Shown: one piece after another, positions 18,066 to 51,366 of the stretch
Position numbering within the stretch: position 1 is the stretch's first letter
How the letters are laid out: the number at the start of each line of letters is the position of its first letter
Assembly: GCF_050320075.1 (NCBI RefSeq)
Contig: NZ_CP190018.1
DNA from: Escherichia coli
Lineage (GTDB): Bacteria > Pseudomonadota > Gammaproteobacteria > Enterobacterales > Enterobacteriaceae
Reading direction: 5' to 3' (one strand)
Length of the DNA stretch: 64,000 bases
Notes under the pieces: generated by a model
Databases searched by the model: none
Seen by the model: the letters and a program-made list of their open reading frames with translations, nothing else
Told to the model about the DNA's origin: nothing
Position numbers and translations under genes: made by a program

Positions 18066-18083
18066 GTAAGCATCTGTCAGAAA

Positions 18084-18116
18084 GGCCAGTCTCAAGCGAG
18101 GCTGGCCTTTTTTCTT
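18084..18116 (+). terminator. Rho-independent terminator downstream of rpoS
   Basis: 10-bp stem GGCCAGTCTC/GAGGCTGGCC with loop AAGC, followed by TTTTTT. Confidence 0.75.
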
Positions 18117-21007: not shown

Positions 21008-21010
21008 ATA

Positions 21011-21041
21011 AAAGGTCCGATGCCCATCGGACCTTTTTATT
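21011..21041. terminator. Bidirectional terminator between convergent ecdD and ygbN
   Basis: Stem GGTCCGATG/CATCGGACC flanked by an A-run and TTTTT. Confidence 0.7.
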
Positions 21042-27752: not shown

Positions 27753-27857
27753 GGTTTTACCCTGTAAAATAAGATTTCCTATTATACAGGGTGTTTTTAT
27801 TTGATTCGTCTGTTGTCGTTAATATTCCCGATAGCAAAAGACTATCGGGAATTGTTA

Positions 27858-31050: not shown

Positions 31051-31088
31051 ATCTGCCGGAGAGCCATACTCTCCGGCAAATAAGGCGC

Positions 31089-44942: not shown

Positions 44943-45405
44943 CGTTTTACTCTGTGTTGGCAATAGCATGATGGGCGATGATGGCGCAGGTCCGCTGCTG
45001 GCGGAAAAGTGTGCCGCCGCGCCGAAAGGTAACTGGGTGGTGATTGACGGCGGTAGCGCACCGGAAAACGACATCGTCGCTATTCGCGAACTGCGCCCGA
45101 CACGACTGTTGATTGTCGACGCCACGGATATGGGGCTAAACCCCGGCGAGATCCGCATCATCGATCCGGATGATATCGCCGAGATGTTTATGATGACTAC
45201 CCATAACATGCCGTTGAACTACCTTATCGACCAGTTGAAAGAAGACATTGGCGAAGTGATTTTCCTCGGCATCCAGCCGGATATCGTCGGCTTTTACTAC
45301 CCGATGACCCAGCCGATTAAAGACGCCGTAGAAACCGTTTATCAACGACTGGAAGGCTGGGAAGGGAATGGCGGATTCGCGCAGTTAGCGGTGGAAGAAG
45401 AGTAG
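44935..45405 (+). CDS. hycI: Hydrogenase 3 maturation protease HycI
   Basis: 156 aa, GTG start, (M)[18 protein letters not shown]. Confidence 0.95.
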   Translation: MTDVLLCVGNSMMGDDGAGPLLAEKCAAAPKGNWVVIDGGSAPENDIVAIRELRPTRLLIVDATDMGLNPGEIRIIDPDDIAEMFMMTTHNMPLNYLIDQLKEDIGEVIFLGIQPDIVGFYYPMTQPIKDAVETVYQRLEGWEGNGGFAQLAVEEE

Positions 45406-45461
45406 TTCGTAGACAAACATGTTCACGTTTTGGAATTTGGACGTGCAATTGTGACGTGTAG

Positions 45462-45490
45462 ACGGGTGTTTACATATTGTGAACACCCGT
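45462..45490. promoter_or_regulatory. Inverted repeat (candidate operator) overlapping a candidate promoter upstream of the higB-like gene
   Basis: ACGGGTGTT-N11-AACACCCGT; overlaps putative -35 TTGTGA (45477-45482), 17-bp spacer, -10 TACTAT (45500-45505); RBS AAGGAAG before ATG 45572. Confidence 0.4.
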
Positions 45491-45571
45491 GTGATCAACT
45501 ACTATAGAAAAATAAATCCGAAGGAATGGTAGTCCAGGTTTAGTCATTCAGGCGCTAATAAGGAAGTTAAA

Positions 45572-45883
45572 ATGCACATCATTTCGAAAGCGCCATTTGA
45601 AGAGTGTGCGCGCAAATATCCTAACGACGCTCTGGCTCTACACTCATTGTATCGGGTTATTAAGGAAACGGATTTTTCTACACCAGAAGAAATGCGAACG
45701 GCGTTTCCTAACCTCGACAATTTTAAATATCGCAACAAATGGTACGTTCTGGATGTCGGCGGGAACAATCTTAGGGTTATTGCCTACATAAACTTTGTTA
45801 ATAAGCGGTTCTTTGTGAAGCACATAACGAATCACGCAGAGTATGACAAACTGACACGTTACTACAGAGAGAACAAAGAATGA
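45572..45883 (+). CDS. HigB-like (RelE/ParE superfamily) toxin
   Basis: 103 aa basic protein with NLDNFKYRNKWYVLDVGGNNLRVIAY segment resembling HigB-family toxins; toxin gene precedes antitoxin as in higBA. Confidence 0.8.
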   Translation: MHIISKAPFEECARKYPNDALALHSLYRVIKETDFSTPEEMRTAFPNLDNFKYRNKWYVLDVGGNNLRVIAYINFVNKRFFVKHITNHAEYDKLTRYYRENKE

Positions 45884-46299
45884 CTGCTAATGCTGCACGC
45901 GCTGTTAAAGCAACAAGAGAACTGGTCAATGCAGTCCCCTTTCTGGGAGGCAGTGACTCAGAAGATGATTATCGTGAAGCACTGGAACTGGTCGAATATT
46001 TGATTGAAGAAGATGACACCAATCCACTTATCGACTTTCTGGCGAGCCGCATTGCAGAATATGAAAACAACAACGAAAAGTTTGCAGAGTTCGACAAAGC
46101 CGTTGCAGCAATGCCGGTTGGCGTGGCCTTACTTCGTACGCTGATTGATCAACATAATTTGACCTATGCGGATTTGAAGAACGAAATCGGCTCTAAATCT
46201 CTGGTCAGTCAGATTTTGTCTGGGCAACGATCCCTGACGATATCCCATATTAAGGCACTTTCAGCCCGATTTGGCGTTAAGCCGGAATGGTTTCTTTGA
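45880..46299 (+). CDS. HigA-like HTH (XRE-family) antitoxin
   Basis: 139 aa, ATGA overlap with toxin stop; C-terminal HTH ...IGSKSLVSQILSGQRSLTISHIKALSARFGVKPEWF typical of HigA. Confidence 0.8.
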   Translation: MTANAARAVKATRELVNAVPFLGGSDSEDDYREALELVEYLIEEDDTNPLIDFLASRIAEYENNNEKFAEFDKAVAAMPVGVALLRTLIDQHNLTYADLKNEIGSKSLVSQILSGQRSLTISHIKALSARFGVKPEWFL

Positions 46300-46377
46300 T
46301 TTTGACTGATGCCAAACCCAAGATTGCCCGATGCGCAACGCTTATCGGGCTTTCCTGGTTCGTGCGACGGTAGTTAC

Positions 46378-49268
<2,891 letters not shown>

Positions 49269-50551: not shown

Positions 50552-50585
50552 ATGTCATCGTCACTAGTGTCGATGACATCGTTTT
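50552..50585. terminator. Near-perfect 28-bp palindrome plus T-run downstream of ascG (probable intrinsic terminator)
   Basis: ATGTCATCGTCACTAGTGTCGATGACAT (13 of 14 positions complementary) followed by CGTTTTT; begins 14 nt after ascG stop. Confidence 0.55.
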
Positions 50586-51214: not shown

Positions 51215-51366
51215 AAATCTTACAGAACTGTTCTGGCATCAAAGGAATTCCCGGAAATATTCGTAGAATACGGAGCGGGCGGTATCGCCGACCTGTGATT
51301 GCCGGATACGACGCTGTCGTGTCCGGCAGGGCGGGTTACGCAATTCATGATGGCGGGAATAACTCA

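Follow-up and report, generated by a model that had tools for sequence, protein, structure and literature searches.

Two described toxin-antitoxin (TA) systems provide the reference for the gene pair considered here, HigB/HigA of Escherichia coli K-12 and SehA/SehB of Salmonella Typhimurium. K-12 HigB and HigA (YgjN/YgjM, b3083/b3082; PDB 5IFG, 6KML) are proteins of 104 and 138 amino acids encoded between fadH and rlmG, toxin gene first, with a 4-nt overlap. The toxin belongs to the PF09907 family and is annotated as a ribosome-dependent mRNA interferase. The antitoxin has an unusual layout, in which an N-terminal toxin-binding and dimerisation domain precedes a C-terminal HTH_3 helix-turn-helix (HTH), and the operator of the operon is a palindrome with a 3-nt centre that adjoins the -10 element. 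This K-12-type locus is matched in 4377 genomes, 2825 of them at a coverage of at least 80%. SehA and SehB (STM4031/STM4030.S) are 40% and 46% identical to the K-12 proteins (PMC12817084, PMC7160566). SehB reportedly binds its own promoter and acts as its repressor, and two palindromes were described over the -35 and -10 elements there (PMC7160566). SehA reportedly shows no RNase activity and inhibits RNase III (PMC12817084). The first paper on sehAB, published in 2013, has been marked as retracted. The HigB/HigA pair of the Proteus vulgaris/Rts1 type has the name and the gene order in common with these systems but represents a different subfamily, with a PF05015 toxin and an N-terminal HTH in the antitoxin.

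The window analysed here is a 64-kb stretch of E. coli DNA in which the interval from the hycI stop to the stop of the convergent ascB (45406-46377, 972 bp) is occupied by a pair of this kind. The features of the interval are as follows.

45406..45571, + strand: leader from the hycI stop to the higB start, in an allele-specific version (166 bp, GC 0.39)
45462..45490, no strand: extended palindrome with 13-nt arms (45462-45474 and 45478-45490), 12 of 13 positions complementary, centre TAT
45468..45484, no strand: core of operator O1, GTTTACATATTGTGAAC, a conserved 17-bp palindrome and predicted HigA dimer site
45477..45482, + strand: putative -35 element TTGTGA within the right half of O1, with TTGTrA at the equivalent place in all relatives
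45500..45505, + strand: putative -10 element TACTAT, 17 nt past the -35, in the same columns in relatives
45560..45566, + strand: Shine-Dalgarno sequence AAGGAAG, 5 nt before the higB ATG, also found in the leaders of the commoner full-length E. coli allele (L002) and of E. albertii
45572..45883, + strand: higB, 103-aa toxin of the YgjN/SehA-type HigB family (Pfam PF09907, PDB 5ifg_A, RefSeq WP_000547555.1)
45880..46299, + strand: higA, 139-aa antitoxin and repressor (Pfam HTH_3, PDB 5ifg_B, RefSeq WP_000126294.1)
46318..46358, no strand: REP-like hairpin 3' of higA, an inverted repeat that is part of the conserved junction and lies outside the module

The coordinates confirm the original prediction of a 103-aa and a 139-aa reading frame in toxin-first order with a 4-nt overlap, formed by an ATGA (45880-45883) that is common to both genes on the same strand. 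The impression that coding GC is lower than in the surrounding genes is borne out by calculation. GC is 0.417 in higB, 0.457 in higA, and 0.392 in the leader, compared with 0.541 in hycI, 0.514 in ascB, and 0.532 in the whole window; flanking genes range from 0.51 to 0.58, against 0.42-0.46 for the pair. Third codon positions follow the same pattern, with GC3 of 0.48 (higB) and 0.42 (higA) versus 0.59-0.65 in comparison genes. As also stated originally, K-12 carries no such module at this junction: the hycI-ascB interval of MG1655 is 158 bp long and gene-free, and its own higBA lies at the fadH/rlmG site. The segment from 46305 onward is also present in the empty-site alleles of K-12 and O157. 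A search of 45300-46500 against Rfam returned no match, and a terminator scan returned two terminator-like matches, both within coding sequence.

E. coli CFSAN061763 has an identical stretch, annotated as hycI, WP_000547555.1, WP_000126294.1, and ascB. RefSeq names the first protein 'type II toxin-antitoxin system HigB family toxin' and the second 'helix-turn-helix domain-containing protein'. Literature searches on hycI with ascB, the WP accessions, orphan HigA, and higBA with phylogroup found no paper on the locus. The pair is a conventional, previously uncharacterised HigBA member that had already been named by homology in RefSeq. The exact HigB sequence also carries the UniRef label 'HIGB_ECOL6'.

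Both proteins match the K-12 system along nearly their entire lengths. HigB contains the Pfam HigB_toxin domain PF09907 of the RelE superfamily (residues 22-93, E=4.6e-23) and aligns with K-12 HigB in PDB 5ifg_A (residues 1-100, E=7e-22). HigA aligns with K-12 HigA in 5ifg_B (residues 9-138, E=2.5e-35) and has the same two-part layout, its C-terminal XRE-type HTH being detected as HTH_3 at residues 85-138 (E=8e-9). BLASTP gives 39% identity with K-12 HigB and 46% with K-12 HigA, in agreement with the HigB/HigA-like identity first proposed from the sequence. Among eight homologous toxins, K-12 HigB included, 30 alignment columns are invariant, and the window's HigB retains all family-invariant residues. 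NCBIfam has no family for either protein. PF09907 was the only toxin family matched and PF05015 was not; since this goes together with the matches to K-12 HigBA and the C-terminal HTH, the pair is assigned as a paralogue of the K-12 YgjN/YgjM-type HigBA rather than to the Proteus/Rts1 type. With a probability of about 85%, the pair is thus a chromosomal type II TA operon of the HigB(YgjN)/HigA(YgjM)-SehAB family, paralogous to K-12 higBA and repressed through its operator. Within this family, the toxin gene lies 5' of the antitoxin gene in one operon and a palindromic operator overlaps the promoter, as in the window, which has one operator instead of the two usual in its relatives.

The 'mRNA interferase' label cannot be assumed for the window's HigB because its relative SehA reportedly has no RNase activity (PMC12817084). 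If the toxin works like that of K-12 HigBA or of Salmonella SehAB, its target may be either mRNA, through ribosome-dependent cleavage, or RNase III, through inhibition. A toxin that binds RNase III and blocks rRNA processing, with the TA logic otherwise the same, is a tentative reading, less likely than not. The residues described as essential in SehA (Y53, D61, H88, Y91, K93, T95, Y97, and Y98; PMC12817084) recur at the same positions in the window's HigB, eight of eight, whereas K-12 HigB differs at four of them (N61, F93, V97, H98). SehA and the window's HigB also have the same length of 103 aa and end in YYRxNKE: TRYYRENKE in the window resembles AYYRGNKE of SehA, deduced from the SehA-KpnI-3' primer (PMC7160566), and is unlike the TAVHRTKGKK of K-12. 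This comparison, however, is built on reported residues and primer fragments, and the RNase III result for SehA comes from one laboratory. K-12 HigB, which carries the ribosome-dependent mRNA interferase annotation, is about equally distant from the window's HigB (39%). In addition, a listing of the 120 closest HigB relatives, which extends down to 56% identity, does not include SehA, which therefore forms a separate clade. A genome scan with HigA peptides did not retrieve Salmonella LT2. A Salmonella HigB match (P0030) considered as a candidate for SehA was rejected, as it is a prophage copy. On the antitoxin side, SehB has 142 aa, and its primer-deduced fragments are by eye roughly half identical to the window's HigA.

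HigB- and HigA-like proteins also occur in the anti-phage system PD-lambda-2 (Vassallo et al., 2022), which protects against lambda-vir (PMC9519451). PD-lambda-2 consists of three genes: A is HigB-like, B is an HTH-peptidase fusion of about 400 aa whose N-terminal part is HigA-like, and C, a P4-antitoxin-like protein, is required for defence. The PADLOC model PD-Lambda-2_A matches the window's HigB over its full length (E=1.2e-15) and PD-Lambda-2_B matches HigA (E=2.4e-14), and homologues of the pair lie on plasmids, on a phage, and in prophage immunity regions. These likenesses would fit an abortive-infection system related to PD-lambda-2. However, HigA covers only positions 9-115 of the 402-position B model and, at 139 aa, has no peptidase domain; no third gene that could correspond to C is present before ascB. 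The polarity of PD-lambda-2 is also opposite, with B toxic and A neutralising (PMC9519451), and the neighbours of the module are the hyc and asc housekeeping genes, with no defence island around it. An anti-phage system of this type is accordingly judged very unlikely, and the assignment to a TA operon of the YgjN/YgjM-SehAB family is retained.

The leader of higB contains a 9-bp inverted repeat, ACGGGTGTT-N11-AACACCCGT (45462-45470 and 45482-45490), which had been proposed as the operator. The repeat is present and overlaps the promoter as proposed, and it extends inward to the 13-nt arms of the palindrome listed above. A palindrome this good is expected by chance about 0.5 times per 64 kb of Markov-1 simulated sequence, or about 0.001 times per 166-bp leader. 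The conserved element, presumably the one contacted by protein, is however the inner 17-bp palindrome GTTyACA-N3-TGTrAAC, most of which had been taken as spacer. Its distribution was followed in the leaders of five plasmid or phage modules, Salmonella prophage copies, 16 other Enterobacterales chromosomal loci, E. albertii, and a cryptic Escherichia lineage. Of 21 homologous modules in other genera, on plasmids, and in prophages, spanning at least 10 genera, 20 carry the motif GTTYACATWWTGTRAAC 5' of higB, at fixed distances from the ATG and between unconserved flanks; the 119 kb of DNA around the modules contain four background matches of at least 14/17. When 12 leaders are aligned, the O1 core is invariant and its flanks vary. 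Within the 64-kb window, the core has a single match, at zero mismatches. The outer arms ACGGG/CCCGT belong only to the window allele, which 343 genomes carry.

The putative promoter elements accompany the operator. The -35/-10 pair that was predicted to overlap the repeat matches only 8 of 12 consensus positions, and a consensus promoter scan left it below threshold and did not call it. Its position relative to the operator is nevertheless kept in all aligned relatives. The spacer is constant in length and variable in sequence, and the -10 columns hold a TAnnnT-type hexamer in 11 of the 12 aligned relatives, with CATAGT in Mangrovibacter. The putative higB promoter is thus supported by comparison and not by consensus.

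Alternatively, the palindrome could act mainly at the RNA level, stabilising the 3' ends of hyc operon transcripts or terminating them. It lies 57 nt past the hycI stop and as RNA folds with -21.6 kcal/mol (z = -3.8), and the stem is lengthened by outer arms that only the window allele has. However, no U tract follows the palindrome, the terminator scan is silent there, and the 17-bp core is also conserved 5' of higB where no hyc operon lies nearby, on plasmids, in prophages, and on other chromosomes, usually twice around the -10. A role primarily in hyc RNA is therefore very unlikely, and the element is best read as the predicted operator of the TA operon.

The operator differs from that of the K-12 paralogue. 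The K-12 higBA promoter has a palindrome of the same geometry, CCGTTGCCA-ATC-TGGCAACGG, but its arms are unrelated to GTTTACA-N3-TGTGAAC in the window. The HTH stretch EIGSKSLVSQILSGQRSLT of HigA is likewise invariant in the window's clade and different in K-12 HigA, in what is the recognition region of the antitoxin. Operators and HTH stretches that differ together are what would be expected if the paralogous repressors ignore each other's operators.

The closest relatives outside Escherichia are carried by plasmids, a phage, and other chromosomes, with proteins 74-82% identical to those of the window; Salmonella prophage HigB is about 69% identical. At about 71-73% DNA identity, such modules are present on 549 plasmid records, of which 467 are from Klebsiella. 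Plasmid hosts comprise Klebsiella, Cronobacter, Salmonella, Enterobacter, and Leclercia, and homologous modules are also found in Cronobacter phage JK004 and in the immunity regions of Salmonella lambdoid prophages. These plasmid and prophage pairs encode proteins of nearly equal length and have the operator motif and promoter layout of the window. In most relatives, a second copy of the motif lies 38 bp downstream of the first, directly past the -10, and in the plasmid and prophage modules the leader is short, with about 19 nt from the end of O2 to the ATG. The Escherichia chromosomal copies, by contrast, have a leader that is longer, by about 31 nt in the window, and have lost the second operator, of which a degenerate trace persists in L002 and E. 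albertii. Repression of the Escherichia copies by a single operator may be weak or different. The leader of the window allele can be aligned with that of the commoner allele only at the operator core and the ribosome-binding region. While the plasmid and prophage relatives reside on mobile replicons, the Escherichia copy is fixed at one chromosomal junction.

From these features, the following operation is proposed. A sigma-70 promoter with its -35 inside the right half of the 17-bp operator O1 (45468-45484) would start transcription, and higB and higA would be translated from one mRNA, coupled by the ATGA. A HigA dimer, alone or with HigB on its N-terminal domain, would bind O1 through the C-terminal HTH and repress the operon. 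HigA would neutralise HigB by direct binding, and free HigB would shut down translation and arrest growth. DNA binding, repression, toxicity, and neutralisation are all modelled here on K-12 HigBA and Salmonella SehAB.

The original prediction described the module as an islet at the hycI-ascB junction and called for a comparison of this interval among E. coli genomes. In a sample of 5426 complete E. coli genomes, full-length higB, together with higA, is found in 1091 (about a fifth), and the K-12 site is empty. The module is always a single chromosomal copy at the hycI-ascB junction. higA occupies this junction in 2508 of the 5426 genomes and stands alone, without higB, in about 1417 (about a quarter). 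The 166-bp leader of the window, always 5' of higB, accounts for the 343 genomes mentioned above. At least five allele states can be distinguished: the window type, a commoner full type, two toxin-deleted types, and empty sites. The commoner full type (L002), also found in E. albertii, has an extra 251-257-aa reading frame with a signal peptide between hycI and higB. This reading frame was considered as a third component of the module and rejected; it has no family match, is missing from the window, and among the fetched loci occurs only in Escherichia or Escherichia-like sequence. The two toxin-deleted types (L003/L035 and L004/L037/L038) arose by different deletions; in both, the operator and the promoter are gone and only the final 33-39 nt of higB are left.

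The empty sites of K-12 and O157 bear on how the module came to this junction. Three pieces of L002 (1-46, 775-798, and 1694-1800) can be aligned with the empty K-12 interval over its whole length (147 of 179 columns), and there is a short repeat at each junction, one of 9 bp (GGGATGTGC) and one of 5 bp (ACTGA). An alignment in three pieces with repeats at the junctions makes the K-12 site look like the product of a double deletion. In E. albertii and the cryptic Escherichia lineage, this junction is likewise occupied by the module. Synonymous divergence between alleles is 0.07-0.16 for higA, 0.11-0.26 for hycI, and, with one aberrant allele left out, 0.07-0.16 for ascB. Because the junction is occupied in E. 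albertii and the cryptic lineage, higA has diverged like hycI and ascB, and the K-12 site can be rebuilt by deletions, the comparison favours a long-standing Escherichia locus with repeated loss, by deletion in K-12 and O157, over a recent islet. Of the islet description, the presence of the module here and its absence from K-12 hold, but an insertion is disfavoured by the K-12 alignment, which indicates deletion. Strict vertical descent from the ancestor of E. coli and E. albertii was also considered and has been softened: one higB from E. albertii matches an E. coli allele nucleotide for nucleotide, and exchange between the species therefore also occurs. The locus would thus be old in Escherichia and eroding, its second operator decayed, the module lost altogether from K-12 and O157, and higA alone kept in a quarter of the genomes.

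Erosion of this kind raises the alternative that the pair in the window is itself decaying and functionally inert, its toxin inactive or its promoter silent. The lost second operator, the rearranged leader, and three private substitutions in the window's HigB (S12C, Q24H, A25S) would agree with decay, as would the deletion of higB or of the whole module in most lineages. The three substitutions all lie outside conserved residues. Neither reading frame is disrupted, however, the exact HigB and the exact HigA protein each occur on at least 1000 contigs, and pN/pS is well under 1 for both genes: 0.03-0.27 for higB and 0-0.1 for higA in all but three pairwise comparisons. Inertness is thus unlikely, and the intact TA operon remains the preferred reading.

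Both genes are under purifying selection, and the orphan higA is strongly so. The HigA protein is identical in the window, L002, L003, L004, L037, and L038 despite 7-16 synonymous differences, with no non-synonymous difference, and this pattern also holds between two orphan lineages. L004 and L037, which share one toxin-deletion type, differ at 7 synonymous and 0 non-synonymous sites, where about 23 non-synonymous differences would be expected without constraint. As the protein is unchanged while synonymous sites diverge, orphan HigA may be kept either as anti-addiction immunity against the 74-82% identical HigB toxins of Enterobacterales plasmids and their prophage relatives (about 69%) or as a domesticated regulator. 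An antitoxin with such a life of its own is a possibility that we regard as rather doubtful. If true, the intact pair of the window would represent the ancestral state of the transition to orphan higA. That purifying selection has kept orphan higA is the finding of most interest in this analysis.

The module adds a second HigBA-type pair to the E. coli repertoire, one that was never studied because it is absent from the laboratory strain K-12. The basic picture is unchanged by it, as the locus is a conventional type II TA locus. The difference between its operator and that of the K-12 paralogue suggests that each regulatory circuit is insulated from the other. With its SehA-type residue set, the toxin offers an E. 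coli system for asking if inhibition of RNase III is a general property of this branch of 'HigB' toxins. Finally, the series of intact, toxin-deleted, and empty alleles constitutes a natural experiment on the decay of TA loci and on antitoxins that outlive their toxins.

Upstream of higB, the leader of the window allele (45406-45571) and its counterpart in the second full allele of the hycI-ascB junction align only at the 19-nt operator core, a palindromic predicted HigA site, and at the ribosome-binding site. The adjoining coding sequence is only ~3% different. The origin of the sequence that replaces the leader in the window allele was sought and not found. Between hycI and higB, the commoner full allele (L002) and E. 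albertii carry an additional reading frame that is absent from the window:

L002:1569-2330 (also in the loci L033, L035, L036, and L040), ORF of 251-257 aa with an N-terminal signal peptide

This ORF has no match in Pfam, NCBIfam, or PADLOC, and its fused ends remain in the K-12 empty site. The empty-site alleles (K-12 and O157) also share a hairpin with the window, and K-12 has one more REP copy at that site. Six other palindromes of the window are probably terminators or REP elements.

46318-46358, REP-like hairpin downstream of higA, 15-nt arms, 80% complementary
18081-18110, 21009-21040, 27759-27792, 31051-31081, 50552-50580, and 51300-51328, further palindromes, 13-nt arms, at most one mismatch

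The higB gene is nucleotide-identical in one E. albertii genome and E. coli MS1494 (L033 and L040). Both genomes lack ascFB and have a DUF4259 gene 3' of higA, which in the E. albertii locus is followed by hydN. The identity of higB, together with this common layout, suggests that the region was exchanged between species. One ascB allele stands apart from the others:

L006:2608-4032, ascB of E. coli LH10-b-1

Approximately 35% of its synonymous sites differ from the other alleles, which differ by 7-16% among themselves; the LH10-b-1 ascB is a highly divergent or imported allele. Homologues of the module also occur in Salmonella enterica (L014-L016), where HigB is 69% identical and the genes lie in lambdoid prophage immunity regions, adjoining Cro/CI-like genes. 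The Salmonella homologue has two slightly divergent copies of the window module's operator motif.

In about 1417 of 5426 genomes, the locus equivalent to 45406-46377 retains higA, while the operator, promoter, and higB are gone. These toxin-deleted alleles, represented by L003, L004, L035, L037, and L038 from further E. coli and Escherichia genomes, reflect at least two different deletions, with endpoints 33-39 nt 5' of higA. They encode an identical HigA protein, with synonymous differences only. The paralogous K-12-type pair lies elsewhere:

L008:5729-6456, K-12 higBA, between fadH and rlmG

This pair is often partial, with matches in 4377 genomes and at least 80% coverage in only 2825. A published comparison reports an orphan higA at this locus in B2 strains (PMC7232551). 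Retention of the antitoxin after toxin loss may be recurrent at both paralogous higBA loci.
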